Part shown: positions 4,684 to 55,268 of the stretch, piece by piece
How the letters are laid out: each line of letters opens with the position of its first letter
Position numbering within the stretch: position 1 is the stretch's first letter
Origin: an uncultured Poribacteria bacterium
GTDB taxonomy: Bacteria > Poribacteria > WGA-4E > WGA-3G
Length of the DNA: 64,000 nt
Assembly: GCA_958296135.2 (NCBI GenBank)
Contig: CATQHZ020000001.1
Coordinates: forward strand, 3,008,001-3,072,000
Direction of reading: 5' to 3'
The notes under the pieces: generated by a model
Told to the model about the DNA's origin: nothing
Seen by the model: the letters and a program-made list of their open reading frames with translations, nothing else
The model's database searches: none
Program-made: the position numbers and the translations under genes

Positions 4684-4696
4684 ACGAACAAACCGG

Positions 4697-5997: not shown

Positions 5998-6024
5998 GTT
6001 TTGTGAAAGGAATCATAAACAAAT

Positions 6025-14210: not shown

Positions 14211-14240
14211 GTTTTTTGTGCATTTTTTTTGCATTTTAAC

Positions 14241-14269
14241 TTGACTTTGCCCCAAAAATGTGTTATAAT
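14241..14269 (+). promoter_or_regulatory. sigma70-type promoter
   Basis: TTGACT-N17-TATAAT, extended -10. Confidence 0.7.
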
Positions 14270-14385
14270 TAATACATGAATTACTGAAAAGCGCATTTTT
14301 AACGCAATCTTTCACAGAACCGCGCCAAACGCTCGCGCAAACACGCGAACTAGAATGCACGATTACAGGACTTTAGAGACACACG

Positions 14386-15969: not shown

Positions 15970-15974
15970 AAAAA

Positions 15975-16970: not shown

Positions 16971-17024
16971 GCCAGCACAAGACCGCGCTCTACCGGATAA
17001 AAGGAAGGCGGAAACAGATAAAAC

Positions 17025-28016: not shown

Positions 28017-29605
28017 AGCTTCCGAAAATCGAGACACATCGTGATAAAAGCGGATTTATCGTGATAAACGCCAACATAAGTGCTATACGAAGTGTTACCG
28101 TGTTGGGCTCGGTCGAGCGTGCAGTGTTATTCGGGAGACCGAATAACACCTCTTCGGCTCAGCAGATCGTGCAGTGTTTTTTGTAATAACAAAAAACACA
28201 TCTTCGGAAACCGGTTTGGAAACCTTTGCAAACCTGCCTACACGAGCTGCAGCAGCGTGTATTCACGCTCGCCTACACGCCCGCCCGCCAATGATATCAC
28301 CGCCAGCGCATTGCCCACCCTAGTGATATAGGCGAAACACGGCAGACGGGAACACCTCATGAAAACGCACAATATTGCACTGCGCCCGACACCGGCACAG
28401 GTTCAACAATTTCATCAGCACGCGGGATTCCGCCGATTTGTCTATAACTACGCTTTGTCCGATTTCAAAGCAGGCTTAGCTGAAGGCGAATGGCGGAACG
28501 GCCGCACATTGCGCACTCGGTTTAATGCCGTGAAGGACACGCAGTTTGACTGGCAGAAACGGCTCATCGCCCGCGTGGCATCACATGCGTTTGATGATTT
28601 TAACACGGCGTGTCAACGATGGAAGAACAAGCTTGCCAAGTTTCCGAAGTATAAGCGGAAGTCGGGTAAACAATCGTTTCGCGTTGACAATAAACGCAAT
28701 GCGATAAAATGTGAAGGTAAACGGCTTTACCTGCCGAAGATAGGCTGGGTGCGGACGTTTGAAGCGTTGCGGTTCAAAGGCGACGTGATGCGCGTAGTGA
28801 TTAAGAAGCGAGGCCCTCGTTGGTTTGCATCGGTGCTCGTCGAAACCCTGTCAATAGCCAAGCCCGATTTACGTGGTTTGCCTACCGTGGGCATCGATGT
28901 GGGTATCAACACCCTCGCTACTTGCTCTGATGGACGCGCCTTTGAAAACCCGCGCGCCTTGGCTCGTTATCAACGTCAACTCCGCCGTGCGCAACGCGCA
29001 CTGAGTCGTTCAGTCTATCGCAGTCAGAATTGGTGGAAAAAGAAGGAACGTGTTGTCCGTATCCACTATCGTATCGCTTGCATCCGCGAAGACGCGCATC
29101 ACAAAGCCAGCACGGCGATTGTGAAAGGTGTCTCAGCAATCGGGATAGAATCTCTGAACGTGAAAGGCATGATGAAAAACCGCCGGATTGCGAAGGCATT
29201 ATCAGACGCAGCACTCGGGGGATTTCTCTCCAAGTTGAAGACGAAGGCGGCGGCACTCGGCGTGCGGATTGAGGAAGCCTCTCAGTGGTTCGCTTCCTCG
29301 AAGACGTGCAGTGCATGCGGACATAAAAAGGATACCCTCACGTTATCGGAACGTGACTATCACTGCAGCGGGTGTGGATTGCGGATAGACCGAGATTTGA
29401 ACGCTGCAAGGAATTTGGAACCCTCGCCGCTGGTTTGACGGAGAGGAGTGGGTATTACCTCTCGTATCCGAGAGGTAATACCTTAAACGCCTGTGGAGCT
29501 CGTGTCAGACTTCGGTTGCGAAGCAGTGAGTGTTGAAGCAGGAACTTTAGAAATCGGACAGACTCATACGGACTTGTCCAGATATGTCTCGATTTCAGGG
29601 AACAG
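28017..29605 (+). mobile_element. Non-autonomous IS607/IS200-IS605-like element carrying only tnpB
   Basis: Imperfect inverted ends (28026 AAATCGAGACACATC vs reverse complement of 29581-29595 AAATCGAGACATATC); AG at both junctions; ATCGTGATAAA direct repeats at 28038/28058; no tnpA. Confidence 0.65.
28359..29438 (+). CDS. tnpB: RNA-guided endonuclease TnpB
   Basis: N-terminal LRPTPAQ..HAG..RFVYN; RuvC motifs GIDVG, IGIESL, DRDLNAARN; Zn finger CSAC/CSGC. Confidence 0.95.
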   Translation: MKTHNIALRPTPAQVQQFHQHAGFRRFVYNYALSDFKAGLAEGEWRNGRTLRTRFNAVKDTQFDWQKRLIARVASHAFDDFNTACQRWKNKLAKFPKYKRKSGKQSFRVDNKRNAIKCEGKRLYLPKIGWVRTFEALRFKGDVMRVVIKKRGPRWFASVLVETLSIAKPDLRGLPTVGIDVGINTLATCSDGRAFENPRALARYQRQLRRAQRALSRSVYRSQNWWKKKERVVRIHYRIACIREDAHHKASTAIVKGVSAIGIESLNVKGMMKNRRIAKALSDAALGGFLSKLKTKAAALGVRIEEASQWFASSKTCSACGHKKDTLTLSERDYHCSGCGLRIDRDLNAARNLEPSPLV

Positions 29606-39934: not shown

Positions 39935-40100
39935 CTCGTCGTGCCGTGTTCGCGAGGGAAACGTAGGAGAGACCTCCTGGTCTCGATGCCCTCCCGGGCG
40001 TTCCTCGTCGTGCTGTGTTCGCGAGGGAAACGTAGGAGAGACCTCCTGGTCTCGATGCCCTCCCGGGCGTTCCTCGTCGTGCTGTGTTCGCGGGGGAAAC
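39935..40100. repeat. 69-bp tandem repeat (~2.4 copies) containing the GTAGGAGAGACCTCCTGGTCTCGAT REP
   Basis: Units start at 39935, 40004, 40073, between convergent genes. Confidence 0.85.
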
Positions 40101-40152
40101 CCTCGGCAGTTAGTGACTGCCGGGGCCCCGCGCTACAGACGAAGAAGATGCC

Positions 40153-41238
40153 TTATATCTCCGGCACCCGCACTGACACCTCTTTCCCGGCTTCGTGCGA
40201 ACGGAAAATGCCATCCATAATCACGTTCGTGAGCAGCACTCCCTCCGGCGGAATCGGCGAGGGCCCGTCTGTCTTGACTGCCTCACGGAAGGCAGACATC
40301 TGTGCCTCCCACACATCTACTGCCGGGAAGCCGGAGAAGCGGATAGTCGTCATCCCTTCCGGTGGATTCGGTTCCGCTGTGAGCCCTTCCGCCTCGACGA
40401 GTTTCTGGAGTTCATCGGTATACGCATCGGCATAGACAACGGGGCCATCCAACGAAATCCCGGCTTCCTTGCCGAGGCAGAAGTTGCCGCCAAGCGAGTC
40501 GTTGTGAATCGCCCACGAGATTTTGAACACCATCACGCCGCCGTTATCAAACCGCACCCATGCCGCGCCGAATTCCTCAACGTCCATCACGTCGCGCCAC
40601 CTCGGGTCTTGCTGCGAGATGTAATCCTCCGTGATGGCAGAGACGCGCACCGGCTTTGGATATCCCATCGCATACAGCGAGTTGTGCATGTTGTAAACAC
40701 CGATGTCAACCGTCGCTCCTGCGCCCGCTGTCTTCTTGTAGATGAAGGTGTGTCCCGGATTGCCGCGCCTTCTGCATCCCGCGGATTCGGAATAGTAGAT
40801 GTCGCCGAGTAACCCGGCATCGACAACCTTTTTAGCGAATTGGAGGCGCGGGTTAAACGTGCTGTGAATACCAATCTGCAAGATTTTGCCAGAGGCTTTC
40901 GCTGCGCGCGCCATCGCGGTGGCATCCGTCAACTTCGCCGCCATCGGTTTCTCGCAGAACACATGCTTGCCGGCGTTCAACGCCGCCACTGTCGGCCGGC
41001 GATGCCCCTGATTATACGTGCAGACGCTCACCGTATCAATGGTGTCCATCTCCAGCATCTTGTTGTAACTAGTGAAGACGTGCTTTTGGGGGACACCCCA
41101 TTCTTCGGCGGCTTGCCGTGCCTTACTTTTGATAATGTCACATACTGCGACGATTTCAAAACCGCCGGCTTTTTCGTAGGCTCTCTGGTGTGCACGCGAA
41201 ATGCCACCTGTGCCAACGATACCAACTCGGATAGTCAT
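40153..41238 (-). CDS. Gfo/Idh/MocA family oxidoreductase
   Basis: IRVGIVGTGGI, GKHVFCEKP, DIGVY. Confidence 0.93.
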   Translation of the reverse strand: MTIRVGIVGTGGISRAHQRAYEKAGGFEIVAVCDIIKSKARQAAEEWGVPQKHVFTSYNKMLEMDTIDTVSVCTYNQGHRRPTVAALNAGKHVFCEKPMAAKLTDATAMARAAKASGKILQIGIHSTFNPRLQFAKKVVDAGLLGDIYYSESAGCRRRGNPGHTFIYKKTAGAGATVDIGVYNMHNSLYAMGYPKPVRVSAITEDYISQQDPRWRDVMDVEEFGAAWVRFDNGGVMVFKISWAIHNDSLGGNFCLGKEAGISLDGPVVYADAYTDELQKLVEAEGLTAEPNPPEGMTTIRFSGFPAVDVWEAQMSAFREAVKTDGPSPIPPEGVLLTNVIMDGIFRSHEAGKEVSVRVPEI

Positions 41239-41300
41239 GGTGTCATCTCCTTTTTCGGTTGATGCAAATCCCTTTCTTGGTTGATGCGAATCCCTTTCTT

Positions 41301-41426
41301 GTAGGAGGGACCTCCTGGTCCCGATAGGGGAGAGTATCGAGACCAGGAGGTCTCTCCTACCGGGGATTGTCGAGACCGGGAGGTCTCTCCTACCGGGGAT
41401 TATCGAGACCGGGAGGTCTCTCCTAC
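41301..41426. repeat. REP cluster: one GTAGGAGGGACCTCCTGGTCCCGAT plus three inverted copies at 33-bp spacing
   Basis: TCGAGACC(A/G)GGAGGTCTCTCCTAC x3; preceded by a 22-bp direct duplication at 41257-41300. Confidence 0.85.
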
Positions 41427-41502
41427 AGCAGTTAACTGAATGTTGTTTATTTTAAACGCGATTCGGTTTGCAATGCAAGTGAAAAATGTGGTATCCTAAT
41501 TG

Positions 41503-41730
41503 CAGAAGGGATTCCGTTGCGGCGGTAGCGGCAGTGTGGAGAGCATTTTCTGTCTTTCTGCACTGTAAACGCAGTATTTCACTGCGGCTTACCACCTCAT
41601 GAAAAGAACCCTCTTCAGATCGCCTGCCCGTTTTCTAAAGGCGTGACCGTTTTTCTATAGACATGTAGGTGACAGCGAACCTAAAGCGAATTTCTTGTGA
41701 CGAGAACCCCTTCGCGCAGAAAGAGTCTGC
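41503..41730 (+). ncRNA. Candidate ~210-230 nt structured ncRNA or leader upstream of dndC
   Basis: Promoter TTGCAA-N18-TATCCT (41468-41497); closing stem GAAGGGATTCCGTTGC/GTGACGAGAACCCCTTC; G-U rich hairpin GCAGTGTGGAGAG/CTTTCTGCACTGT; CGCAGT/ACTGCG. Confidence 0.35.
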
Positions 41731-41741
41731 AGTAAAAAAAA

Positions 41742-41771
41742 TTGGCATTTTATTGCGAAATATGCTATGCT
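41742..41771 (+). promoter_or_regulatory. Putative promoter of dndCDE
   Basis: TTGGCA-N18-TATGCT with extended -10 TG. Confidence 0.45.
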
Positions 41772-41864
41772 TCGTTTTGCGCCTTGAGAGCTTTTGAAAC
41801 AGATATTCAGCTCAATGCGTTATATCTATTTTTAGACAGTTTTCCTTGAAAGGGAATGTAATCC

Positions 41865-43271
41865 ATGGGAGCCGAGACCCCTTACAGCATTTTCAATACG
41901 CGCCCGCTTGCCCAGGTCTATCGCGAAATCCAAGAGGTCTATCTTGAAAACGCGCGTCCCTGGGTCATCGGCTACAGCGGCGGGAAAGACTCAACGACAG
42001 CACTCCAACTCGTTTGGTATGCTCTCGCGGAACTGCCGCCCGAAAAACGGAAGTATCCGGTCTACGTCATTTCATCCGATACCCTCGTCGAAACACCGGT
42101 GATTGTCAGTTACATTACCGGCACGCTGGCGCGAATTGAAACGCACGCGCGCGAACAACAGATGCCTTTTCAGACCGAACTCGTTCGGCCGAAAACCGAA
42201 GACACCTTTTGGGTGAACCTCATCGGGAAGGGTTACCCCGCGCCCTATTCACGCTTTCGGTGGTGCACCGACCGGCTCAAGATCCAGCCGGCGAATCGGT
42301 TCATTTTGGACAAAGCCTCGGTGCACGGCGAGGTTATCCTCGTGCTCGGTTCGCGCAAAGGGGAGAGTGCCACCCGCGACCAGGTGTTGAGTCTGCATCG
42401 TCTCAAAGATTCGTTGCTATCAAGGCATACCACGCTGCCGAATGCCTACGTCTATACGCCGATTGTCGATTTTGGATTGAACGATGTGTGGATGTATCTG
42501 CTTAGCAATCCGCCGCCGTGGGGCGGCAATAACAAGCAGCTCGTCACGCTCTACCGAAACGCCAACGCGCAAGGCGAATGTCCGCTCGTCGTTGACGAAA
42601 CCACGCCTTCGTGCGGAAACAGCCGCTTTGGATGCTGGACCTGCACGGTTGTCTCGAAAGACCGGTCTATGGAAGGACTCATTGACAACGGCGAAGAGTG
42701 GATGTTGCCGCTGCTGGAATTCCGGGACTTCCTCGCCGAAACGCAAGACCCGGAACGGAAGGCAGATATTCGGGAGCATAGACGGCGGAATGGAAAGATA
42801 ACGTTCGTGGGAGAGAAACTGATTCGGGGCCCCTATACGCTGGAATTCTGTAAGGCACTGTTGCGGCGGCTTCTTGAAACCCAGCAGCAGGTCCGCGAAG
42901 AAGGACCGGATCCGAACCTCCAACTCATCACGGATGCTGAATTGGAAGAGATTCGTAATATCTGGCGGACTGAACGTTCGGATTGGGAAGATGCCGTACC
43001 GCAGATTTACAAGGAAGTTGTCGGTGAGCACGAGTGGATTGTTGACAACACAACCGCTTTTAACGGCGACGATAAACTGTTGTTGTCCAAAATCTGTGAC
43101 GCAAACGGTATTCCCGTTGAACTCGTAGCAAAACTACTTGATACCGAACGACAGATGGATGGCATGAGCCGTCGCGCGGGAATCCAGTCCCGGATTGATG
43201 CAATCTTTCACGAGGACTGGGATTCAGAGGAAGAAGCTCGCGCCCGTCTAACTAGAAGTAATCAATTATGA
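41865..43271 (+). CDS. dndC: DNA phosphorothioation sulfurtransferase DndC
   Basis: PWVIGYSGGKDS, SDTLVETP, FWVNLIGKGYPAP, RWCTDRLKI, CGNSRFGCWTCTVV. Confidence 0.95.
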   Translation: MGAETPYSIFNTRPLAQVYREIQEVYLENARPWVIGYSGGKDSTTALQLVWYALAELPPEKRKYPVYVISSDTLVETPVIVSYITGTLARIETHAREQQMPFQTELVRPKTEDTFWVNLIGKGYPAPYSRFRWCTDRLKIQPANRFILDKASVHGEVILVLGSRKGESATRDQVLSLHRLKDSLLSRHTTLPNAYVYTPIVDFGLNDVWMYLLSNPPPWGGNNKQLVTLYRNANAQGECPLVVDETTPSCGNSRFGCWTCTVVSKDRSMEGLIDNGEEWMLPLLEFRDFLAETQDPERKADIREHRRRNGKITFVGEKLIRGPYTLEFCKALLRRLLETQQQVREEGPDPNLQLITDAELEEIRNIWRTERSDWEDAVPQIYKEVVGEHEWIVDNTTAFNGDDKLLLSKICDANGIPVELVAKLLDTERQMDGMSRRAGIQSRIDAIFHEDWDSEEEARARLTRSNQL

Positions 43272-45271
43272 TTATCCATACCCTCACCGTTAACAACTTT
43301 GGTTTGTTCCGTGGAGAGCATACTCTTCCGTTAACACCGAACGGTACGGAGTCCGTCATCCTTATCGGTGGAATGAACGGTGCTGGCAAAACGACGCTGC
43401 TGGAGGCGGTTCGTCTTTGTCTGTACGGCAAGCGTGCCCTCGGGAATCGGGTTAGCCTCAATGAATATCATGAGTACCTCTCTAAAATGATTCATCGAGA
43501 TTCTCGTTTCGCGGGGAGTTTAAATTACGCTTCTGTGTCACTTGAATTTGAGTATGCCTACGGAGCAGAAAAAAGAGAGTACCGGGTCAAACGTTTTTGG
43601 CAACAGTGCGGCAAAGCAGTTGACGAGGTTTTGACTGTCTCTGAACCTCATCAGTCAAGCAACCATTTTGAGACAGAACATTGGCAGGACTACCTCAATG
43701 GACTCCTCCCAATTGGAGTATCCCAGTTCTTTTTTTTTGATGGCGAGGATATCCAGAAATTGGCGGACGACTCCAGTCACGACGTATTCCTTGCGGATTC
43801 GATTAAGGCGTTGCTCGGGCTAAATCTCGTTGAGCGGCTGCAATCGGATTTGCGAATCTACTCAAACCGGTTGGTTAAGCGAGGAAGTCCGGTCTCGGTG
43901 CAAGAAGAAATTGGGGCGGTGGAGTCAGTAGTCACCTCTCTTGAAGTGTCTCTTTCAAATGTGACTGCAGAAAAGGAATCTCTACAGTCGCAGATTGAGG
44001 AGTTATCAGCAGCAATTACCCAACAAGAAGAGCGGATTGCAGCCGAAGGCGGAAGTTACGCCCAAAGTCGCGAAAACCTGAAACTTCAGCGAGAGCAACT
44101 GCAGAACGAGATTGAGGAATTAGAAGACGAGATTCGCGTATTTTGTGACGAATTGTTTCCGTTCGCTTTAGCACCGGGACTTCTCGAGGAATTGGCGGAA
44201 CGGCTTCTTAAAGAGATGGAGTTGGATAAGTGGGAAGCGACAAACAACGCGTTAACTGAGCATAACACTGCGGTGCTTGAAACGCTGGGATCGGGCAATT
44301 TTTGGGAAGGGGTTTCCCTATCGGGGGAACAAATCGCGGATATTCGCGCCAAACTTGCTCCGCTGCTCAAGACACAATTTGAGCGTCCCGAATCGTTGCG
44401 CGGTTTCACAAAACTCAGGGACCGGTCTCCATCGGAACGGCAGCAACTGTTAAAATGGATTGATGCCTGTCTCAATGAAGTTCCGCGGCAAGCGAAGAAG
44501 TTGTTCAATGCACTGGAAAAAGCACAAACCGAACTACAGCAGGTGGAACAGGCTCTTCAGAGAGTGCCATCCGACGAAGTTTTGAAGCCGCTAATCGAAA
44601 AACACTCGGAGTTGAATCAAACGCTGGGGCAACTGCAAAAGCAGGAGCAAGATACAGAAAAATTCGTGCTCTCCTTGACACGTCAATTGGCAGAAACAGA
44701 GCGCAGATTAGAAAGGTTGCGTCAAGCCAAACGGTTGGACGAAGCGCACCGCGAACGCCAAAAACGGGTGAGCGATGTGCAATCGGTGCTCTCTAAGTAC
44801 ACGACAAAACTCACCGGGACAAAAATTTTGACTTTGGGAAACACTATTGTAGAGGGTTTTAACCAACTCTCTCACAAGCGGAATAGAATCAAACGGGTTG
44901 AGATACATCCGCGGACGTTTGCGGTAACGCTCTATGATACCTACAATCGTCCTGTGGCCAAGGAAGAATTATCAGCGGGTGAAAAGCAGATTTACACAAC
45001 CGCGCTCTTATGGGGGTTGGCGAAGACCTCGGGCAAGGTATTGCCGATGATTCTTGACACGCCTCTAGGACGTTTAGATAGTGACCATCGCCGTCTGCTG
45101 ATTGAGCGGTATTTTCCGTATGTCAGTCATCAAGTGGTTTTGCTTTCAACGGATACGGAAGTTGACGAGCATCTCTACGAGCTGCTGACCCCTCACATTT
45201 CGCATGCGTTCCGGTTGGTGTATCAGCATACAGAAGTTCACACCACTATTGAGAATGGCTATTTCGGATAA
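43268..45271 (+). CDS. dndD: DNA sulfur modification SMC-like ATPase DndD
   Basis: GGMNGAGKTT, FFFFDGE, coiled coil, LSAGEKQI, ILDTPLGRLD, YFP..SHQVVLLSTDTE; ATGA overlap with dndC. Confidence 0.95.
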   Translation: MIIHTLTVNNFGLFRGEHTLPLTPNGTESVILIGGMNGAGKTTLLEAVRLCLYGKRALGNRVSLNEYHEYLSKMIHRDSRFAGSLNYASVSLEFEYAYGAEKREYRVKRFWQQCGKAVDEVLTVSEPHQSSNHFETEHWQDYLNGLLPIGVSQFFFFDGEDIQKLADDSSHDVFLADSIKALLGLNLVERLQSDLRIYSNRLVKRGSPVSVQEEIGAVESVVTSLEVSLSNVTAEKESLQSQIEELSAAITQQEERIAAEGGSYAQSRENLKLQREQLQNEIEELEDEIRVFCDELFPFALAPGLLEELAERLLKEMELDKWEATNNALTEHNTAVLETLGSGNFWEGVSLSGEQIADIRAKLAPLLKTQFERPESLRGFTKLRDRSPSERQQLLKWIDACLNEVPRQAKKLFNALEKAQTELQQVEQALQRVPSDEVLKPLIEKHSELNQTLGQLQKQEQDTEKFVLSLTRQLAETERRLERLRQAKRLDEAHRERQKRVSDVQSVLSKYTTKLTGTKILTLGNTIVEGFNQLSHKRNRIKRVEIHPRTFAVTLYDTYNRPVAKEELSAGEKQIYTTALLWGLAKTSGKVLPMILDTPLGRLDSDHRRLLIERYFPYVSHQVVLLSTDTEVDEHLYELLTPHISHAFRLVYQHTEVHTTIENGYFG

Positions 45272-45276
45272 GCATT

Positions 45277-45684
45277 ATGCAATTCAACCGAATTCGCCTT
45301 TCTGAGGATTCCCGCATCAAGTTGGGAATTTTAAAGACGCGCACGGGTTTGCTACCCAACGTTCTCTGTCGAATTGGGTTGATGCTTTCGTTAACAAACC
45401 CGAGCGAACCAGAACTTGATGCTGATGCAACGGATGGTTCCGAGTTTAACCGCTACACGCTTACGGGTGAGTGGGATCCACTGATTGTAGCACTCTTGGA
45501 GGAAAGGGTTCTCTCCAAAAGGCTTTGTGCGGACAATCAAGAATTTGGCGCGGATAGGGAAGAGTTTGACAATGAAAAACTTGTTAAATACTTTCGAGCG
45601 CACCTGAATCACGGAGTGCGTATGCTTCACGGCCGCGTGAGGGGATTGGAGGATTTAGCGAACCTCCTAATGCCTGTGCCTTAA
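45277..45684 (+). CDS. dndE: DNA sulfur modification protein DndE
   Basis: RIRLS..LK.RTGL.PNVLCRIGL.LSL, EFNRYTLTGE, FRAHL..G; directly follows dndD. Confidence 0.9.
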   Translation: MQFNRIRLSEDSRIKLGILKTRTGLLPNVLCRIGLMLSLTNPSEPELDADATDGSEFNRYTLTGEWDPLIVALLEERVLSKRLCADNQEFGADREEFDNEKLVKYFRAHLNHGVRMLHGRVRGLEDLANLLMPVP

Positions 45685-45784
45685 TATTTCGTCAAACGAG
45701 TCCGGTAGGCGCGCTTCGTAAGCATGCTCCCTTGGATTGACGCGCGCTTACAAAGTGGATCTACTAGTATTAAGTCTCTCTAAC

Positions 45785-46810
45785 CTATTTCCCCCATTCC
45801 CGCTCGTACTGACTCGTTGAAGGCCGAGCCTCAATTCCCAATTCTCGTTTCAATGCAAGGGCAAGGTCTACACCATGCCCACCCCGGCTGTTATCCGTGA
45901 TAACCTTCTTGGCTCCAGTAGCACGTACATATTCAAGAGTCCCTATATAGTCAGCATGGTCTGAAAGTGATACGCAAAATGCCTTCTCTGAATATTCTAC
46001 GACTGGATCCCCGAAGCGGCTCATGTATGCACTCAACACGATTCTGGAAGTAGCTTCACCCTTGTCAGTTGGGAACCTCTCTCTGGTTCCATAAAGACGA
46101 ATGTACCTTCCTTCGCTGCAAGCGAGTTTTGCTTCTGCTGTCTCAGCATTAAGGACCTTTGTTAGGCTATATCCATGCTGCTGATACACTCTTAATTCAT
46201 CACAGAGCCGTGCGCTTGCAATGATCGGGAATTTGACTGCATCATCTAGACAAGAAGCTGCTCTTTGTAGGGTACCGCGGTGAGATAAAATTAGAACCGG
46301 GCCAACTTTTATCCGCTCAACAACTAACTCTATAAAGCGGCCATTTGCCTCTTCTTGGGTGAATTTTCGGACTGATTCAGGAGATCCGTAGGTGCTATCC
46401 AATACGAGTTCCTCAACCTCTATAACCTCGCCGAGAGGCCAAGCGAAATCCCCTGAGTATCCGCACCTTCCTCCATCAGGTAACGTTACTTCAACCTGCA
46501 CAGAACCTAGCATGTGTCCGTTATCCAGCAACCGGATCTGACATTCAGCTAGATGAATAGGATGCCCTAATGAAACAGCCTTGACGTTAGCGCGATACGG
46601 GATGTCTGCATTGTATTCAGCTATCAACAGGTCGCGAGTGGGCTGAGTCATAATAATATGCTTCTGATGCCCTTTGCTCCTATCAAAGCCATCCATGTGA
46701 TCTTCATGGACATGGGTTTGTACGCGAATCGGATATTCGTGAACGAAACCGTCACAAGTTACCACATCACCTAGTGTAACCGCACCCGATCCAGAAATGT
46801 CAATCCTCAT
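45785..46810 (-). CDS. MBL-fold beta-CASP-type nuclease (SNM1/ligase-associated exonuclease-like)
   Basis: THVHEDH (HxHxDH), NGHMLGS, YSGDF, LVLDSTYG, SLSDHAD. Confidence 0.85.
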   Translation of the reverse strand: MRIDISGSGAVTLGDVVTCDGFVHEYPIRVQTHVHEDHMDGFDRSKGHQKHIIMTQPTRDLLIAEYNADIPYRANVKAVSLGHPIHLAECQIRLLDNGHMLGSVQVEVTLPDGGRCGYSGDFAWPLGEVIEVEELVLDSTYGSPESVRKFTQEEANGRFIELVVERIKVGPVLILSHRGTLQRAASCLDDAVKFPIIASARLCDELRVYQQHGYSLTKVLNAETAEAKLACSEGRYIRLYGTRERFPTDKGEATSRIVLSAYMSRFGDPVVEYSEKAFCVSLSDHADYIGTLEYVRATGAKKVITDNSRGGHGVDLALALKRELGIEARPSTSQYEREWGK

Positions 46811-46815
46811 ACAAC

Positions 46816-47526
46816 CTAATCCTTGCTAGTTAATTCTCGTGTTAGATATTCCGTGATTGCTTGTTCAAAGCCCTCAGGAAGTGACATAATCGCGGCATGA
46901 AGCCGATCGTCTCCAATTAGAAGAAAATATCCATCACCAAGTTTGGATCCCAATCGCGGAATATTAGGACTGTATCGATCTAGTGCAGATTGCAGAAGAT
47001 TATCACGTTCTAGTTGTGAAATCTGCCTGAGACTATCTTTCAACCTTTCAGATTGGAGACTTCCGACAATCACATGCCTTCTCTCAATGACTGGACGTTG
47101 ATTCAAGACAGCCTTCATGCACTCTTTGATGGAGTTTCCCGAGCGCTGCCGGATTTGAACAACCTGCATGATCTCGGATTTGCTAAACCGATTCTCCAAC
47201 GCGGCTGTTGCTAATGCAAGTTGCTCTTGCTCGTCCTCAAGTCGGGCAATCTCAGAACCGGCAGTAAAGGACAAGGTTGCCGGATCAGACCCCCATCCGA
47301 TGAGTTGTTGCACGTCAGGAGGTAGCCGGAGAAGGCGGATGAAACGCCCGATTATAGATGAATCCTCAAGGAGGAGCCGGGCAGCAATCTCCCGCCTTTT
47401 TTCACCTGCCTCTAATGCTTTGTCCATAAGTTTCGCGACTTCAACCGGCGAAAGCGGCCGCGCCGATTTATGCGTTCCTACGGAAAGAATAAGCTGACGT
47501 ACTTCGGACGACGACAACCCTCTCAC
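46816..47526 (-). CDS. ParB/Spo0J-type HTH protein lacking the N-terminal CTPase domain
   Basis: LSPVEVA...EIAARL...SSIIGRFIRLLRLPPDVQQLI resembles the Spo0J/KorB HTH region; GTGA overlap with the upstream gene. Confidence 0.65.
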   Translation of the reverse strand: MRGLSSSEVRQLILSVGTHKSARPLSPVEVAKLMDKALEAGEKRREIAARLLLEDSSIIGRFIRLLRLPPDVQQLIGWGSDPATLSFTAGSEIARLEDEQEQLALATAALENRFSKSEIMQVVQIRQRSGNSIKECMKAVLNQRPVIERRHVIVGSLQSERLKDSLRQISQLERDNLLQSALDRYSPNIPRLGSKLGDGYFLLIGDDRLHAAIMSLPEGFEQAITEYLTRELTSKD

Positions 47527-48356
47527 ACTATACCTCTGTCAGGATCGTAGCCGCCGCTTGATAATCCGCTTTCAATCAGTTGGGCAGCTGCCTCGTCTAC
47601 GGTAGTGCCTTCGTCCTTCGCAAATTGCCCTAACGAGTTGCGAATTTGCTTTCCAAGGGTCACAGTAATTTGCGTAACCTTTTCGCCGCTTTTCGCTCGT
47701 TCTACAAGTTCATCCACAGAGGCATCGGAATCATCTCTTAGTTTCTTGCGGAGATTCTCTTGCTGCGCGCCGCTCATCTGTGACATTTCTTTGGCGAGTT
47801 TCACGGAATCTTGCGGGTCGGGATCGCCCTCGGTTGCCAGGGCATCCTGGGCACGAAGGGCAGCCTTCAAGGTGGCGTCTCCCTTTTCAACAACCCTTTT
47901 GAGTTCAGGAATTAGACGGTCATATTTGACATATTCGCGCACTTTTTCGTAGGGTAGTCCGGTTTCGTCCGCGACCTCTTTCATTGACGCGTAGTGCTTA
48001 TACAGGTATGTGCAAACGTCAATCAGGTCCTTCCGGTTTAGGTTGCGACGGACAAGGTTTTCGGTTACCGATAATACCTTCGCTTGGATTTCTTCCACGC
48101 GGTCGTCAAGGATACCGGCTTTAATCGTTTTTTTACCAAGTCTCTGGTGTGCCAAAAAACGCCTTTGGCCCAGTATAATTTCATACTTTTCACCAGATTC
48201 CAAAGGAGCGACCAGGATAGGTTCCAAGAGTCCTACTTTGGCAATGCTGTCTGCGATCTCATCAATCTCTTTCCCAACATCGCTTAAGCGGACTTGGCTC
48301 GTTCCGATTACTAGATCTTCCAAAGGAATATCTTTAAATTCGACAATATTTGCCAT
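47523..48356 (-). CDS. ParB/Srx N-terminal domain protein with HTH and C-terminal RHH-like domain
   Basis: IADSIAKVGLLEPILV, YEIILGQRRFLA (GxRR), ENLVRRNL, EVADETGLP HTH; ATG 48356 after GGAGGA. Confidence 0.85.
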   Translation of the reverse strand: MANIVEFKDIPLEDLVIGTSQVRLSDVGKEIDEIADSIAKVGLLEPILVAPLESGEKYEIILGQRRFLAHQRLGKKTIKAGILDDRVEEIQAKVLSVTENLVRRNLNRKDLIDVCTYLYKHYASMKEVADETGLPYEKVREYVKYDRLIPELKRVVEKGDATLKAALRAQDALATEGDPDPQDSVKLAKEMSQMSGAQQENLRKKLRDDSDASVDELVERAKSGEKVTQITVTLGKQIRNSLGQFAKDEGTTVDEAAAQLIESGLSSGGYDPDRGIV

Positions 48357-48495
48357 CTTAGTTTCCTCCGCATTGAGACACAGTTGATACTCCACTAGGG
48401 GGTCTCGTTTATGTCCCCCAGATATTTTCGATTGTTGACATAAAGACTGCAACACAGGAACTTTGTGATGTCAACATCTTTGTAAATAAACTATT

Positions 48496-48677
48496 GTCGG
48501 AGTTGCAGTGCGGATTCGCGAGTCTCCGGCCCCACAAGTTGACTGCCTCCGCCTTTGAGTTCTCGGTGTTGACGCGACAGCAACGACGCGTCTTTGTGAA
48601 CGAAGCGCGACGCGCGCTCGGTTCTGTGCAGTCCGAGGGCCGCCTCTTCCGCTGCGACCGGCCCGGCGCAATTCCTC
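48496..48677 (-). ncRNA. Candidate rod-shaped ncRNA copy A (6S RNA-like)
   Basis: Own promoter TTGCAA(48712-48707)-N17-TATGCT with TG; nested stems CCGGTC/GGCCGG, GACTGC/GCAGTC, GACGCG/CGCGTC; near-duplicate of copy B. Confidence 0.55.
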
Positions 48678-48741
48678 TTAAATAGCATACCACAAAACGC
48701 GAAAATTTGCAAACAAAAAATATTAGAGAATTTTCTGTGGA

Positions 48742-48914
48742 GTCGGAGTTGCAGTGCGGATTCGCGAGTCTCCGGCCCCACAAGTTGACTGCCTCCGCCT
48801 TTGAGTTCTCGATGTTGACGCGACAGCAACGACGCGTCCTTGTGAACCATGGTTCTGCGCAGTCCGAAGGGCCGCCTTTCCCGCTGCGACCGGCACGAAC
48901 CCGCGCAATTCGTC
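48742..48914 (-). ncRNA. Candidate rod-shaped ncRNA copy B (6S RNA-like)
   Basis: Own promoter TTGCAA(48949-48944)-N17-TATTCT with TG; closing stem GCGGGTTCG/CGAATCCGC plus the same inner stems. Confidence 0.55.
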
Positions 48915-49134
48915 GTGGATAGAATACCACAGAAAACGAAATTTTGCAAACAAAAAACGTTCGCGAAATTTTCGTGGATACGGTATCAACGCTTTCATTT
49001 TAGAAAAATGCCAATTTGTCTCAACCACTTTTTTGCGCAAAGCGATGCCTTAACATCGGTTTTTGAGGATTTCGGCACAAATTAACCAAACCTTCTCTCA
49101 ATTTTACCACATTTCCAAAAAAAACAAAATGTTC

Positions 49135-49163
49135 TTGACAAATTTATCAGAAAATAATAGAAT
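49135..49163 (+). promoter_or_regulatory. sigma70-type promoter
   Basis: TTGACA-N17-TAGAAT. Confidence 0.6.
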
Positions 49164-49244
49164 ACCTAGATTGACACGCTGTTCGCGCCAAATGCGCGCA
49201 ACAGAAATTATGAATATCTCTAACCAACAGGAGGAATCTTGTTT

Positions 49245-50078
49245 ATGAGACTCTTTATTACCGTTGCTTGTGTGCTGTGTGCTGCAGCTATCATGCTTTG
49301 CGCACCCACAGCCGATGCAGCGAAGAAAATTGATGTCTTCGTTTACACGGAGACAGTGCAGTGGATCGGCCAAGCACAGGCACAAGACGCAGCCGACATC
49401 CTGATCAAGGAAATCGAAGGCAAACAGGGAATCGGCGAAGTTGTCAACGACCCGGCGAAAGCGATTGAAGCCTGGACGAAGAAACATACCGTCGACAAGG
49501 GCAATCACATCATTGTGATGTTCGGGGATTTCCCCAAGGAAATTTACCCGAATGGTAAAGGCGACATCAAGAAGGGCTCCGTCGCTGAGGAGTTCCTCGA
49601 TGCCGGCAATACCTACTCGAACAGTGCCGACTACTTTTTCTGGGGACAAGGAGGCCGGAATGAAAAGGAAGGACTCCAAAACATGATGGATATCCCCGCA
49701 ATCGTTCAGTGGGATGACGACACCCCGATGAAGGTGACGAAGGAAGGAAAGGCACTGACTCCGTCATTGGACGATTACAACACAGACCGGCCCTTCCACC
49801 TCAATGAGCTGGAAGGCGATTGGGAATTGGAAGTCGCCTTCGCTACCGAAACCGGCAAGGGGGATAACGCAACACGCTGCGATCCTTGTATCGTCCGGAA
49901 TACGAAGACGGATGCACGCCTTATCCAGGTCTACCAGACTAACAATCAGGCTGATCCGAAGGGTGAAGTCATCGCGGAGATCATCCTGAACTACTATCTT
50001 GAAGTCACGGGGGCCCTCGAGGTCGACCCGCAGGATAAACTGCCTACACGTTGGGCAGACATCAAAACTCGGAGGTAA
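49245..50078 (+). CDS. Secreted hypothetical protein with Poribacteria-type C-terminal motif
   Basis: Signal peptide; ADYFFWG, GLQNMMDI, DRPFH; tail VDPQDKLPTRWADIK. Confidence 0.8.
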   Translation: MRLFITVACVLCAAAIMLCAPTADAAKKIDVFVYTETVQWIGQAQAQDAADILIKEIEGKQGIGEVVNDPAKAIEAWTKKHTVDKGNHIIVMFGDFPKEIYPNGKGDIKKGSVAEEFLDAGNTYSNSADYFFWGQGGRNEKEGLQNMMDIPAIVQWDDDTPMKVTKEGKALTPSLDDYNTDRPFHLNELEGDWELEVAFATETGKGDNATRCDPCIVRNTKTDARLIQVYQTNNQADPKGEVIAEIILNYYLEVTGALEVDPQDKLPTRWADIKTRR

Positions 50079-50084
50079 TAATTG

Positions 50085-50888
50085 ATGCGAAACGTTTGTA
50101 TCCTTCTAATCGCCATGGTTTTCATGGCACTCCCCTTGGCTCCGCTGTTCGCAGCAGGCGAGGTGGCAATCTACACCGGCACCACGCAGTGGATCGGCAA
50201 AGCCCCCGCGGACGAACAGGCGCAGATCTGCGTTGACATGCTTGACGCTGCCGGCATCTTGAACACGTGGTTCGATAGCGATGGCGATATGGATGCCCTC
50301 GCCGAGTGGATGGATAGTGTCACCGGCGACCAGGGATTGGACATCTGTGTGCTTTACGGCGATTTGCCGCCGCCCGTCTATCCGGAGGGCAACTCACAGA
50401 CCGATGGCTCCGTCGGCGAAACCTTCATTGAGACTACCGATGGCGATACGTTCATCAACCACGCCGACTATATGTTTTGGGGACTCGGCGGCCGAAATGA
50501 GGAAGGCGGCTTGCAGAACATGATGGACATTGAAGGCATTGTGATGTGGGACGATGATACCGCGATGACCGTGACAGACGAAGGCAAGACCATCTCGCCG
50601 AGTCTGACCGATTTTGCGTCAGATCGCCCGTTCCACGTCGATGAACTTGATGGCGATTGGGAAGTTGAGGTATCTTTGGCACAGAGTGATGACGGCACCC
50701 GTGCGGATCCGATTATCGTTCGCGATGGCAACCTCGGCAGACTGATTCCGGTCATCCAAACGAACGGAGGCGATGAGCCGAAAGGCGCGGTCGCGGCGGA
50801 GATCATCATCTGGCTGATGTCCACCACGCCTGTTGAACCGGCTGGAAAGTTGTCCACAACGTGGGCAGACTTGAAAGCAGTCCGATGA
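50085..50888 (+). CDS. Secreted hypothetical protein, paralog of the preceding gene
   Basis: ADYMFWG, GLQNMMDI, DRPFH; tail VEPAGKLSTTWADLK. Confidence 0.8.
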   Translation: MRNVCILLIAMVFMALPLAPLFAAGEVAIYTGTTQWIGKAPADEQAQICVDMLDAAGILNTWFDSDGDMDALAEWMDSVTGDQGLDICVLYGDLPPPVYPEGNSQTDGSVGETFIETTDGDTFINHADYMFWGLGGRNEEGGLQNMMDIEGIVMWDDDTAMTVTDEGKTISPSLTDFASDRPFHVDELDGDWEVEVSLAQSDDGTRADPIIVRDGNLGRLIPVIQTNGGDEPKGAVAAEIIIWLMSTTPVEPAGKLSTTWADLKAVR

Positions 50889-52541: not shown

Positions 52542-53165
52542 ATGGCATTTAGCGATTTCAAGTCGGTTCCTGAAGTTCAAGCGAAATTCGGCATCAAATC
52601 TTCAGAAGAGGATTTCATCGGGGTTGAGGAAGCTTTAACTCCTTCGGAGTCTTTTCTGCAAGAATTTGAATTTAACCGGCAACACCTCAACACCCTCGGG
52701 TCTGAGATGGCACGATGTGAGACGCTTATCTTTCCGGTTTTACGGGAAGTCTATAAACCCTACGCCGAGTCCTATATGCTCTGGATTGGCGAATCTCTTG
52801 CTTACGACGCAACTTTAACCGGCACGCCGGACTACTTCATCGCCACAAAATCTGAACTGGGCAAGCGCGTTGTCGGCACGCCCTTGATAATTCTTGTTGA
52901 GGCGAAGAAGAACGATTTTGAGTTAGGTTGGGGGCAGTGTCTGGCGGAGTTAATCGCCGCGCAGAAAATCAACGAGGATGCAGCTTTTCCGGTATACGGC
53001 ATCGTCACCGATGGGATGCTCTGGCAATTCGGGAAACTTGTCGGCGTCCGCTTTACTGAAAACATCACGCCGTTTAGTTTGGGGGATTTGCCGCGCCTCT
53101 TCGGAGCAATTGATGCTGTCTTCAAAGCAGCCCAAAACGGAAGCCCCGCGACCGCGGCACCGTAG
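52542..53165 (+). CDS. PD-(D/E)xK restriction-endonuclease-fold protein, copy 1
   Basis: LTGTPDY...VEAKK...GWGQCLAE...YGIVTDG..WQFG. Confidence 0.75.
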   Translation: MAFSDFKSVPEVQAKFGIKSSEEDFIGVEEALTPSESFLQEFEFNRQHLNTLGSEMARCETLIFPVLREVYKPYAESYMLWIGESLAYDATLTGTPDYFIATKSELGKRVVGTPLIILVEAKKNDFELGWGQCLAELIAAQKINEDAAFPVYGIVTDGMLWQFGKLVGVRFTENITPFSLGDLPRLFGAIDAVFKAAQNGSPATAAP

Positions 53166-53240
53166 CCGCCGGCAACTTTGTCGCCATCAGCATTTTCGGT
53201 ACAGACACGGTGTTGCTTTACCAGAAAAGGAGTGGAACCG

Positions 53241-53864
53241 ATGGCATTTAGTGATTTCAAAACGCTCACTGAAGTGCAAAAAAGATTCGGCATTAAGGAC
53301 TCGGAAATTGACTTTGTCGAGGCTGACAAACTCTTAAACCCTTCGGAGCATTTCCTGCAAGGATTTGCGTTTAGTCGGCAGCACCTTAATGTTTTCCGGT
53401 CCGAGGCGGCTCGGTGTGAGGCGGTTATCTATCCAATTTTACTAGAGAGTTATAAAGGATATGCCGATAATTATATGCTCTGGATTCGCGAACCGCTCGC
53501 CTACGATGCAATCTTGAGCGGCACACCGGACTACTTTATCGCTACCCGGTCGGCATTGGGAAAAAACGTTGTCGGCACGCCTTTGGTGATGGTGGTAGAG
53601 GCGAAGAAAAACGATTTTGAGTTAGGTTGGGGGCAATGTCTGGCGGCGATGATAGCCGCGCAGAAAATCAACGAGGATGCGGCGTTTCCGGTATACGGCA
53701 TCGTCACCGATGGCATGTTTTGGCGATTGGGGAAACTTGTCGGCGACACTTTCTGGGAGAACATCACGCCGTTTAGTTTGGGGGATTTACCGAGACTCTT
53801 CGGGGCAATTGATGCTGTCTTCAAAGCCGTTCAAAACGGAAGCCCCGCGACCGCGGCACCGTAA
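53241..53864 (+). CDS. PD-(D/E)xK restriction-endonuclease-fold protein, copy 2
   Basis: Same motifs; MAFSDFK start at 53241. Confidence 0.75.
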   Translation: MAFSDFKTLTEVQKRFGIKDSEIDFVEADKLLNPSEHFLQGFAFSRQHLNVFRSEAARCEAVIYPILLESYKGYADNYMLWIREPLAYDAILSGTPDYFIATRSALGKNVVGTPLVMVVEAKKNDFELGWGQCLAAMIAAQKINEDAAFPVYGIVTDGMFWRLGKLVGDTFWENITPFSLGDLPRLFGAIDAVFKAVQNGSPATAAP

Positions 53865-53941
53865 CGCCCCTCGTGCTTTGTTGCAATCGGCAGCTCTGGG
53901 ACAGGCACGGTGTTGCCTTACCAAAAGAGGAGGGGGAACCG

Positions 53942-54565
53942 ATGGCATTCAGTGATTTCAAAACCGTTGTTGAAGTGCAAGAAAAATTCAGCATCAAGTC
54001 TTCAAGAGTGAATTTTGTCGCGGATGAGGAACCCTTAACTCCTTCGGAGTGGTTTCAGCAAGAATTCGCTTTCAATATGCAACAGTTTGACTTTGCCGAA
54101 TCTGAAACGGCACGGTGTCAGGCACTGATCTTCCCCGTTTTACGGGAAGTCTACAAGGCCTATGCCGAGGACTACGTGCTCTGGATTGACGCATCTCTTG
54201 CTTACGATGAAACTTTAACCGGCACGCCGGACTACTTCATCGCCACAAAATCTGAACTGGGTGGGCGTATTCTCGGCACGCCGCTGATAATCGTTGTTGA
54301 GGCGAAGAAGAACGATTTTGAGTTAGGTTGGGGGCAATGTCTGGCGGAGTTAATCGCCGCGCAGAAAATCAACGGGGATGCGGCGTTTCCGGTGTATGGC
54401 ATCGTCACCGATGGGATGCTCTGGCAATTTGGCAGGCTTGTCGACGACAGCTTCACACAAAACATCACGCCGTTTAGTCTCGGCGATTTACCGCGCTTGT
54501 TCGGCGCAATCGATGCTGTCTTCAAAGCCGTTCAAAACGGAAGCCCCGCGCCCGCGACACCGTAA
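53942..54565 (+). CDS. PD-(D/E)xK restriction-endonuclease-fold protein, copy 3
   Basis: Same motifs; MAFSDFK start at 53942. Confidence 0.75.
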   Translation: MAFSDFKTVVEVQEKFSIKSSRVNFVADEEPLTPSEWFQQEFAFNMQQFDFAESETARCQALIFPVLREVYKAYAEDYVLWIDASLAYDETLTGTPDYFIATKSELGGRILGTPLIIVVEAKKNDFELGWGQCLAELIAAQKINGDAAFPVYGIVTDGMLWQFGRLVDDSFTQNITPFSLGDLPRLFGAIDAVFKAVQNGSPAPATP

Positions 54566-54641
54566 CGTCCCTCGTGCTTTGTTGCAATCGGCAGCTCTGG
54601 GACAGGCACGGTGTTGCCTTACCAAAAGAGGAGGGGAACCG

Positions 54642-55268
54642 ATGGCATTCAGTGATTTCAAAACCGTTGTTGAAGTGCAAGAAAAATTCAGCATCAAGTC
54701 TTTAGAGGAGGATTTTGTCGGCGTTGAGGAACCCCTAACACCTTCGGAGTGGTTTCTAGAAGAATTCGCTTTCAACATGCAACAGTTCAACTTTGCCGGG
54801 TCTGAGATGGCACGGTGTCAGGCATTAATTTTTCCTGTTTTACGGGAAGTCTATAAGGCCTACGCCGAGGACTACGTGCTCTGGATTGACGAATCCCTTG
54901 CTTACGATGAGACTTTGACCGGCACGCCGGATTACTTCATCACCACAAAATCTGAGTTGGGCCGACGCATTTTCGGCAGGCCTTTGGTGATGGTGGTAGA
55001 GGCGAAGAAGAACGATTTTGAGTTAGGTTGGGGGCAATGTCTGGCAGAGTTAATCGCCGCGCAGAAAATCAACGGGGATGCGGCGTTTCCGGTGTATGGC
55101 ATCGTCACCGATGGCATGTTCTGGCAATTTGGCAGGCTTGTCGACGACAGCTTCACACAAAACATCACGCCGTTTAGTCTCGGCGATTTACCGCGCTTGT
55201 TCGGCGCAATCGATGCTGTCTTCAAAGCCGTTCAAAACGGAAGCACTTCACTACCGGAAAGGAAATGA
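54642..55268 (+). CDS. PD-(D/E)xK restriction-endonuclease-fold protein, copy 4
   Basis: Same motifs; MAFSDFK start at 54642. Confidence 0.75.
   Translation: MAFSDFKTVVEVQEKFSIKSLEEDFVGVEEPLTPSEWFLEEFAFNMQQFNFAGSEMARCQALIFPVLREVYKAYAEDYVLWIDESLAYDETLTGTPDYFITTKSELGRRIFGRPLVMVVEAKKNDFELGWGQCLAELIAAQKINGDAAFPVYGIVTDGMFWQFGRLVDDSFTQNITPFSLGDLPRLFGAIDAVFKAVQNGSTSLPERK

Follow-up and report, generated by a model that had tools for sequence, protein, structure and literature searches.

A three-gene ParB/beta-CASP nuclease operon facing dndCDE in a Poribacteria genome, a candidate phosphorothioate-coupled restriction partner

The DNA analysed here (hereafter the window) is a stretch of 64,000 nt from the Poribacteria contig CATQHZ020000001.1 (assembly GCA_958296135.2, positions 3,008,001-3,072,000). 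Six open reading frames (ORFs) occupy its positions 41865-48455 (Table 1). Three of them, on the + strand, are dndC, dndD and dndE, which encode a writer of DNA phosphorothioate (PT) modification. The other three, on the - strand, encode a ParB protein, a protein with a ParB-type helix-turn-helix and no other ParB domain (called here HTH-only) and a metallo-beta-lactamase nuclease of the beta-CASP type (called here MBL); they are referred to below as the triad. The dndC and dndD genes overlap by 4 bp and a gap of 5 bp separates dndD from dndE; likewise, the ParB and HTH-only genes overlap by 4 bp and the MBL gene follows after 5 bp. The two sets of genes are convergent, the stop codons of dndE and MBL lying 100 bp apart. 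When the ORF list was recomputed, the positions, overlaps and gaps were found to be those given in an earlier annotation made from the letters of the DNA alone (the sequence-only reading). The GC content over ~43-49.5 kb is 0.47-0.51 vs 0.54-0.60 in the flanks, in agreement with the AT-richer block that had been described there. Its statement that the window holds no dndA, dndB, dndFGH, pbeABCD, sspE or parA gene also stood: no DndA, DndB, DndF, DndG, DndH, Pbe or Ssp protein was detected among the 51 window ORFs scanned with PADLOC, and no ParA-type (AAA_31) match falls within the window coordinates.

Table 1. Features discussed in the text. Positions are those of the window unless another contig or locus is given.
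Feature	Position	Strand	Size	Description
dndC	41865-43271	+	468 aa	PAPS-reductase-type sulfurtransferase
dndD	43268-45271	+	667 aa	SMC/ABC-type ATPase
dndE	45277-45684	+	135 aa	
MBL nuclease	45785-46810	-	341 aa	mini beta-CASP; last gene of the triad
HTH-only protein	46816-47526	-	236 aa	ParB-type HTH
ParB	47523-48356	-	277 aa	CTP-pocket domain, HTH, linker, RHH-like tail (plausible); longest ORF reaches GTG 48455
Triad leader	48357-48483	-		GGAGGA 8 nt before the ATG, and a TTGACA hexamer
Tandem repeat	48496-48983	-	~240 bp	immediately upstream of the ParB gene
Two paralogous ORFs	49239-50888		279 and 268 aa	without family
Three paralogous PD-(D/E)xK proteins	52542-55268			PADLOC PD_DExK, 139-150 bits
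TnpB-type gene	28359-29438			OrfB_IS605, Cas12f-like TNB and HTH_OrfB_IS605 domains
Pbe slot of G066	L111 (G066:C1:4543000-4562999) 13698-18385			PbeA, PbeC, 160-aa gene
DUF262 gene 1	G000:C1 ~1,903,000-1,904,700 (L112 472-2202)		576 aa	GmrSD_N + GmrSD_C; DndI/SspE/GmrSD architecture
DUF262 gene 2	~3,200,000-3,201,800 (L113 507-2333)		608 aa	GmrSD_N; weak PADLOC candidates only

The assignment of the + strand genes as dndC, dndD and dndE was confirmed by curated models. DndC scored 569 bits with TIGR03183 (cut-off 290), 646 bits with NF005316 and 670 bits with the PADLOC DndC model, and its Pfam domains are PAPS_reduct and, at residues 402-448, a C-terminal Sp-DndD small-protein domain. DndD scored 540 bits with TIGR03185 (cut-off 246) and 706 bits with the PADLOC DndD model. 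DndE scored 84 bits with TIGR03184 (cut-off 72) and 79 bits with Pfam DndE, and the PADLOC Dnd model was matched as well. All three proteins thus exceed the NCBIfam equivalog cut-offs and, being encoded together, they belong to a Dnd modification module. The genome carries two IscS-like genes (417 and 397 bits), both under the DndA cut-off of 480. IscS is able to replace DndA according to PMC11662687; the sulfur used by DndCDE presumably comes from a housekeeping IscS.

The last gene of the triad had been proposed to encode an MBL nuclease with intact HxHxDH and beta-CASP motifs, and this proposal was borne out by alignment and by fold. No Pfam or PADLOC model matched the protein. The HxHxDH motif is found at residues 33-38, and D20, H33, H35, D37, H38, H99, D138 and H285 are invariant in 32 diverse homologues, D121 being nearly so; these residues correspond to MBL motifs 1-4 and to beta-CASP motifs A and B, which places the protein in the beta-CASP family. 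The AlphaFold model (mean predicted local distance difference test, pLDDT, 91.8) retrieved archaeal CPSF/FttA, Artemis and SNM1A as top Foldseek matches (E 1.7e-18 to 1e-14), with template modelling (TM) scores of 0.60-0.69 against SNM1A and Artemis, and a profile search of PDB sequences returned the CPSF, Artemis and SNM1A families again. With 62.3 bits against a cut-off of 325, MBL lies outside TIGR04122, the ligase-associated exonuclease family. Look-alikes in the ESM Atlas, which are leads only, fall in clusters of small MBL/RMMBL proteins and of ligase-associated exonucleases. Of 1.84 billion cluster representatives searched, 655 fall in the MBL family at E <= 0.001, and 161 of them remain at E <= 1e-30; longer fusions (598-2000 aa) were not found at E <= 1e-20, which is weak evidence.

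Relatives of the triad were compared in 7 loci from reference genomes and 80 from metagenomes, whose ORFs were searched with the proteins of the window. The HTH-only protein has HTH_ParB as its sole Pfam match (33 bits, cut-off 22.6) and has no ParB N-terminal (CTP) domain. Its AlphaFold model (pLDDT 95.2) comprises a DNA-binding domain at about residues 1-140, for which Foldseek retrieved only the DNA-binding part of ParB/Spo0J/Noc proteins over ~120-130 columns, and an alpha/beta C-terminal domain that gave no Foldseek match. HTH-only and MBL are fused as a single ORF in 7 of the 87 loci, and fusions of 582 aa account for 9 among the 120 homologues listed. The existence of these single-ORF fusions ties the HTH-only protein to the nuclease.

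The third protein matched Pfam ParB_N (48 bits, cut-off 26) and TIGR00180 (63.9 bits, cut-off 58.45). Residues Q21, R23, G63-Q64-R65-R66, L68, A69, E99 and N100 are invariant in 33 homologues, and a profile search aligned the CTP-pocket motifs with those of Noc (7ol9, E 1.9e-19) and of ParB-CTP structures. The QxR, GxxRxxA and ENxxR pocket motifs and the HTH therefore assign the protein to the ParB/Spo0J/Noc domain family, and the ParB domain, GQRR motif and HTH of the sequence-only reading stand. The ribbon-helix-helix (RHH)-like tail proposed with them fared less well: the last ~50 residues are predicted to form strand-helix-helix, and RHH-type matches, found in 5 of the 8 tails scanned (RHH_5 3, ParG 2, RepB-RCR_reg 2, DUF6290 1), were all sub-threshold. 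An RHH-like nature of the tail is plausible, not established. Translation most likely starts at ATG 48356 rather than at GTG 48455, because GGAGGA lies 8 nt upstream of the ATG and all homologues align from residue 30-34 of the longer ORF on. The gene is not in a partition context, as the window has no ParA-type gene and no palindrome is common to the loci: no perfect palindrome of 12, 14 or 16 nt was shared by more than two of 81 sequences (80 loci and window 40001-50000), and no parS-like site was identified by this comparison. A predicted complex of ParB with HTH-only, computed from an alignment of each protein, scored 0.23 vs a mark of 0.32, which speaks neither for nor against a contact. 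We also considered ParB as a DndB, and this was ruled out: it matches the canonical ParB model, and true DndB proteins co-occur with its relatives (see below). Judging from the metal-site and pocket motifs that are kept, both the nuclease and ParB look active.

Conservation of the triad as an operon and its proximity to dnd or ssp writers, which the sequence-only reading had left as checks, were both observed. Wherever a metagenome locus has 1700 bp or more of sequence ahead of MBL (50 of 50 loci), ParB and HTH-only are encoded directly upstream of it, and HTH-only is present in all 59 loci in which this sequence reaches 800 bp. A PAPS-reductase-type writer was found in every one of the 18 metagenome loci whose sequence extends 3 kb or more past the triad in both directions: DndC/DndD in 15, SspABCD in one (L052) and a lone PAPS reductase in two (L016 and L024). 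The Ssp assignment in L052 rests on SspA, SspB, SspC and SspD beside the triad, with 1056 bits for SspC and 360 bits for SspD, while in L016 and L024 a lone PAPS reductase of 260-280 aa immediately follows the fused nuclease. In the phylum of the window, 10 of 176 genomes carry the nuclease and 64 carry DndC; in all ten, DndC lies on the same contig, 2.4-5.7 kb away. It should be noted that not all entries behind these numbers are independent: some genomes are kin and some contigs are near-duplicates (of 86 rows in the nuclease tree, 80 are distinct). The link of the triad to DNA sulfur modification is strong, and this part of the sequence-only proposal of a PT-linked module holds; a pairing specific to Dnd does not, since the triad is found beside SspABCD and lone PAPS reductases as well.

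The position of the dnd genes relative to the triad varies. Of the 40 loci that hold them, 13 have them upstream and 11 downstream of the triad on its own strand; the two gene sets are convergent in 14 others and divergent in two. These four arrangements argue for selection for adjacency and not for inherited synteny. In a nuclease tree from a quick IQ-TREE run, a starred clade unites the four rows with a lone PAPS reductase and six rows whose partner is unknown, and the Ssp-linked rows, two in number, fall in two small clades; the number of partner switches is not readable from this tree. In one further Ssp-linked locus (L063), the gene order is SspB-SspC-SspD-SNF2-ParB-HTH-MBL.

These observations bear on whether the triad could work on its own, in defence or in the upkeep of a mobile element, and share islands with PT genes without being tied to them. 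Mobile elements often encode ParB proteins, the block is AT-rich, and integrases or transposases are present in some of the related loci (L015, L016, L024 and L052). The adjacency of a PT writer in 18 of 18 loci and 10 of 10 genomes, in four arrangements and with three types of writer, speaks against it, as do the lack of a ParA-type gene in the window and a tblastn search with the nuclease in which none of 72,556 plasmids and 50,697 phage records gave a match. Moreover, the nearest other PADLOC hits in the window, the PD-(D/E)xK paralogues, are ~4 kb away. We regard such an independent system as highly improbable.

The sequence-only reading described a tightly coupled three-gene operon. The coupling was confirmed, and the relatives showed a fourth gene. 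In 41 of the 45 loci with 1500 bp or more of sequence ahead of ParB, the gene immediately upstream encodes a SNF2 helicase of ~460 aa; L013, L052, L088 and L089 are the four loci without it. The usual form of the family is thus a four-gene cassette of SNF2, ParB, ParB-HTH and beta-CASP nuclease, and the window carries a helicase-less three-gene version of it. The SNF2 proteins of the relatives best match the helicase modules of ZorD (262 bits), DpdE (247 bits) and DrmD and, from these matches, look like a defence motor. No SNF2 of the cassette type is present in the window or in the rest of the genome (5.19 Mb, 94.7% complete), in which the best scores, up to 59.7 bits, were those of unrelated SNF2 proteins of more than 1000 aa. 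The locus was also compared with L010, which is syntenic with the window on both sides: its positions 4364-8443 (4.1 kb) stand against 878 unrelated bp in the window. Within this segment (5177-8421), L010 encodes a GIY-YIG-like protein of 159 aa, a DndB-like protein of 418 aa (117 bits) and a SNF2 of 461 aa, all upstream of ParB, and the window lacks all three. A GIY-YIG-like and DndB-like pair as in L010 is also found in L008.

The absence of these genes raises the possibility that the triad of the window is a crippled remnant, non-functional after loss of the SNF2, DndB-like and GIY-YIG-like genes. A helicase that is present in 41 of 45 loci and missing from both window and genome, and the 4.1 kb of L010 that are replaced here by unrelated DNA, are what would be expected of a remnant. 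By contrast, the three ORFs are full length and translationally coupled and keep every family-invariant residue, a Shine-Dalgarno site precedes the ATG of ParB, and helicase-less versions recur in 4 of the 45 other loci. In L013, for example, ParB starts 9 bp after dndE in a single operon-like string without SNF2. On balance, we think it unlikely that the triad is a remnant.

A comparison within the genus gave a further indication of function. The genome G066 has DndC and lacks the nuclease, and it is syntenic with the window on both flanks and across dndCDE, with 79-90% nucleotide identity (79% for dndCDE). In G066, the slot that corresponds to the triad (~45668-48483 of the window) is occupied by PbeA (817 bits), PbeC (434 bits) and an ORF of 160 aa, PbeA being a helicase-type protein of 688 aa and PbeC a DndD-like ATPase. 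The two congeneric sponge-symbiont genomes thus display a natural module swap, triad vs Pbe, at one chromosomal site. Pbe is described as a PT-dependent restriction partner in PMC11662687; because it occupies the same site in G066, the triad fills the slot that a restriction module has in the sister genome. The triad leader, of 114-127 bp, is without counterpart in either genome, as the homology with L010 begins at 48368 and that with the flank of G066 stops at 48483. In G066, a PIN-domain gene and two unknown ORFs are also inserted between a GFO oxidoreductase gene and dndC.

A DndFGH or Pbe set elsewhere in the genome would have supplied dndCDE with a known partner, and neither was found. 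DndF, DndG and DndH (TIGR03236, TIGR03237 and TIGR03238) gave no match in the genome, a weak negative as these models were also silent in 14 control genomes, and no full PbeA is present, the best hit (123 bits) covering the helicase part only. DndB is likewise missing from the genome, the best candidate being a distant DGQHR protein with 70 bits vs a cut-off of 328. The region G000:C1 ~1,503,574-1,517,260 holds, within 14 kb, this DGQHR/DndB-like ORF, a SNF2-type ORF of 1058 aa and a partial copy of the repeat found upstream of ParB (Table 1), and may be another defence island.

Two other roles for the cassette have to be weighed against these results. It could be an accessory of modification, helping PAPS-reductase-type enzymes to reach, open or nick DNA, or setting the amount of PT, with no part in restriction. 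The known PT writers include an ATPase, a nickase and a DNA-binding protein, and the only family common to the three types of partner is the PAPS-reductase type (DndC, SspD or the lone enzyme of 240-280 aa). In addition, the L016 and L022 islands consist of SNF2, ParB, HTH::MBL and PAPS reductase with small ORFs and have no DndD/E or SspB/C, and DndB, itself a ParB-superfamily protein, regulates PT writing (PMC10853773). Against such a role, 54 of the 64 DndC-positive genomes of the phylum have no cassette, and Dnd writing therefore does not need it; the Dnd- and Ssp-linked loci already have complete writer sets; a restriction module, Pbe, takes its place in G066; and DndB co-occurs with the cassette in L029, L055, L059 and L010, so the cassette is no substitute for DndB. 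An exclusively modification-side role appears quite unlikely to us.

The cassette could also serve PT-associated repair, the beta-CASP enzyme trimming breaks or lesions at PT sites or during PT insertion while ParB and HTH-only mark the site. Among curated families, the ligase-associated DNA damage response exonuclease comes nearest (62 bits, and the Atlas look-alikes), the size and fold of MBL are those of SNM1A and Artemis (TM 0.60-0.69), and the other PT-linked nucleases found beside some cassettes could be the true restriction enzymes. However, the score is far under the cut-off of 325, and the loci annotated showed neither a ligase nor an Lhr-type gene nearby. The patchy distribution (10 of 64 DndC genomes), the replacement of the cassette by Pbe at the same site, the defence type of the SNF2 and the AT-rich, island-like locus do not fit a repair function either, which we hold to be very unlikely.

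The undescribed nature of the module, as asserted in the sequence-only reading, is consistent with our searches. PADLOC has no model for the triad and its Dnd, Pbe and Ssp effector models, a set that does not include SspFGH and DndI, matched none of the three proteins; no description of the triad or cassette was found in the literature searched. The nucleases listed for Dnd neighbourhoods in the main text of PMC10853773 are HKD, HNH, REase, URI, HEPN and PIN. In that portion of the article MBL, lactamase, CASP or CPSF are not mentioned and SNF2 concerns DndH, although its supplementary tables may list the cassette. In the part of PMC12839542 that was available, ParB is mentioned in GmrSD, DpdB and DndB contexts only. 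The kind of system is thus a known one, PT modification-restriction, and the new element is a PT partner module unrelated to DndFGH, Pbe, SspE and DndI.

It resembles these effectors in several respects. SspE and DndI couple a nucleotide-hydrolysing domain of the ParB/Srx superfamily to a nuclease beside a PT writer, as the cassette would also do, and PT on self DNA changes their NTPase activity and DNA binding, as passages of PMC11662687 report. They are the effectors of SspABCD and IscS-DndBCDE, respectively, and are built as a DUF262 NTPase of the DGQQR type fused to a DUF1524 HNH nickase. The cassette, unlike them, consists of separate proteins, is of the canonical ParB/Noc type with a beta-CASP MBL fold, and normally includes SNF2; moreover, none of the triad proteins matches an SspE model. 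DndFGH is likewise a restriction partner encoded next to dndBCDE, in which a motor and a nicking nuclease are restrained by PT (sections of PMC11662687 and PMC10853773), but it has no homology to the triad and other domain sets. PbeABCD fills the slot of the triad in G066, convergent with the syntenic dndCDE, and yet PbeA and PbeC are unrelated to ParB or to the MBL nuclease.

The individual proteins depart from their better-known relatives as well. Compared with the ParB, Noc and KorB CTP-dependent clamps, the triad ParB has an N-terminal domain and HTH that align with Noc and with ParB-CTP structures, the pocket motifs are kept and the TIGR00180 cut-off is passed, whereas a ParA partner and a common palindromic site are missing, Q replaces the E of GERR, an RHH-like tail would replace the usual C-terminal dimerisation domain, and the gene is always in a nuclease operon. 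MBL shares the fold and the small size (~340 aa) of the TIGR04122 and SNM1A/Artemis beta-CASP nucleases, and differs from them in its TIGR04122 score (62 vs 325), its gene context and the residue aligned with motif C, which is neither His nor Val.

Taken together, these results suggest that the triad is a phosphorothioate-coupled restriction partner of dndCDE, a reading to which we give a probability of about 0.55. The dndCDE genes, as PT writer, and a reduced copy of a widespread partner cassette would form one module, with the cassette most likely as the effector that carries out restriction in a self/non-self discrimination based on PT. The HTH-only protein would bind DNA and carry the nuclease, some relatives having both as one polypeptide, and ParB would act as a nucleotide-gated DNA clamp or switch, with CTP as the probable nucleotide, that permits the nuclease to act or holds it back. 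In the full cassette, the SNF2 motor would move the complex along the DNA. PT marks made by DndCDE would stop the complex from cutting host DNA, as with DndFGH and DndI. The gene identities, the conserved operon, its linkage to PT writers, the swap with Pbe and the intact catalytic and pocket residues are observations; we infer the nucleotide, the substrate, any reading of PT and all protein contacts except that of HTH-only with the nuclease. SspE and DndI provide one precedent, because in them a ParB-superfamily NTPase domain is coupled to a nuclease and modulated by PT, and DndFGH another, because PT restrains its translocation-coupled nicking (both from passages of PMC11662687).

Several observations weigh against this restriction reading. 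The first concerns the nuclease. Its nearest families act in DNA repair (SNM1A, Artemis, ligase-associated exonuclease) or in RNA processing (CPSF). In beta-CASP proteins, motif C is His in members acting on RNA and Val in SNM1/Artemis. In a HMMER alignment with PH1404, the motif C His is opposite N307, beside the nearly invariant D306, and since this residue is neither His nor Val, a specificity for DNA or RNA is not readable from it. The lack of SNF2 means that this copy may work differently or not at all. The minimal SNF2-ParB-HTH::MBL-PAPS-reductase islands of L016 and L022 leave room for a modification-side role. Where dnd lies downstream on the same strand, a nuclease of the HNH_2 or Mrr_cat/HARE-HTH type is found between the cassette and dndB, so that the cassette is not the sole candidate restriction enzyme there. 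In a Gaiellaceae metagenome-assembled genome (L011, 9228-11014), HTH-only and the nuclease occur without ParB upstream, the sole ParB-less case seen; this genome has no ParB of the module type, only an ordinary ParB (51 bits), and it gave only a weak SspD match (39.7 bits), at a place where tblastn with DndC, DndD and DndE of the window gave none, the DndC family model not having been run on it. Finally, a gene of the DndI/SspE architecture (DUF262 gene 1, DUF262+DUF1524) lies ~1.15 Mb from dndCDE and could serve it in trans. Its product matched the PADLOC Orf5 model over its full length (585 bits). The accession numbers of the Orf5 model fall between those of the Dnd and Pbe models of PADLOC, which probably groups Orf5 with the dnd system. 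Next to dndCDE, the triad is thus the sole candidate partner; in the genome as a whole, it is not.

Some relatives of the cassette deserve mention in their own right. In one clade (L016 5169-10401, L022 3390-8144, L024 6996-12037 and L015 118-2047), HTH and nuclease are mostly fused, as a protein of 582 aa, and the gene directly after them encodes a lone PAPS reductase of 240-280 aa; the L015 contig begins too late to include the HTH part. The PAPS reductase of L016 scored 56 bits with PADLOC BrxP and 29 bits with SspD. The cassettes of L016 and L022 sit between housekeeping genes, ftsZ and nrdR in the first and tsaD and DUF2851 in the second. These SNF2-ParB-HTH::MBL-PAPS-reductase islands may be a minimal sulfur-modification system of their own. 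In four other loci, with dnd downstream on the strand of the triad (L029 4585-7061, L055 11005-13724, L060 5280-7666 and L078 4176-5417), MBL is followed by a conserved ORF of ~90 aa without family, then by an HNH_2 or Mrr_cat nuclease, with or without HARE-HTH, and then by DndB or DndA. In L011, a gene for an AMP-binding enzyme lies upstream of HTH-only, and the contig ends 12 bp past the nuclease gene.

The surroundings of the triad in the window were also inspected. Rfam gave no match across 45600-49400, and the sites found by a simple promoter and terminator scan were no more numerous than in shuffles. The tandem repeat upstream of ParB has a core of 106 nt that is 98% identical between the copies, each of which begins with a promoter-like AT-rich part followed by a GC-rich part. 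It too was without Rfam match, and its folding was no better than that of shuffles (z 0.08). One copy is present on the same flank in G066 and partial copies occur elsewhere in the genome of the window. Each of the two L010 counterparts of the paralogous ORFs without family matches both window ORFs. The PD-(D/E)xK paralogues, the TnpB-type gene and a second DUF262 gene are given in Table 1.

Should the restriction reading be right, it would reach beyond this locus. A broader proposal, which we advance tentatively and consider doubtful as a whole, is that the cassette is a new class of restriction partner, present in many uncultured lineages and serving at least three sulfur-writing systems (Dnd, Ssp and a minimal PAPS-reductase system). 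It would be the first immune system to place cutting by a nuclease under the control of a sliding clamp of the canonical ParB type, gated by CTP; the clamp would read sulfur marks as self as it slides or is pushed on the DNA, and the helicase-less core could stand alone. According to PMC10853773, of 3416 taxa in which a nuclease gene lies near the modification genes only 806 have DndFGH. Most Dnd modification loci are thus without DndFGH, and the cassette is a concrete candidate for restriction in the remaining taxa. If true, a beta-CASP nuclease would be added to the known PT effectors, and research on ParB as a CTP clamp would be joined to that on phage defence, from which it has so far been separate; the exchange of triad and Pbe at one site provides a ready-made comparison.

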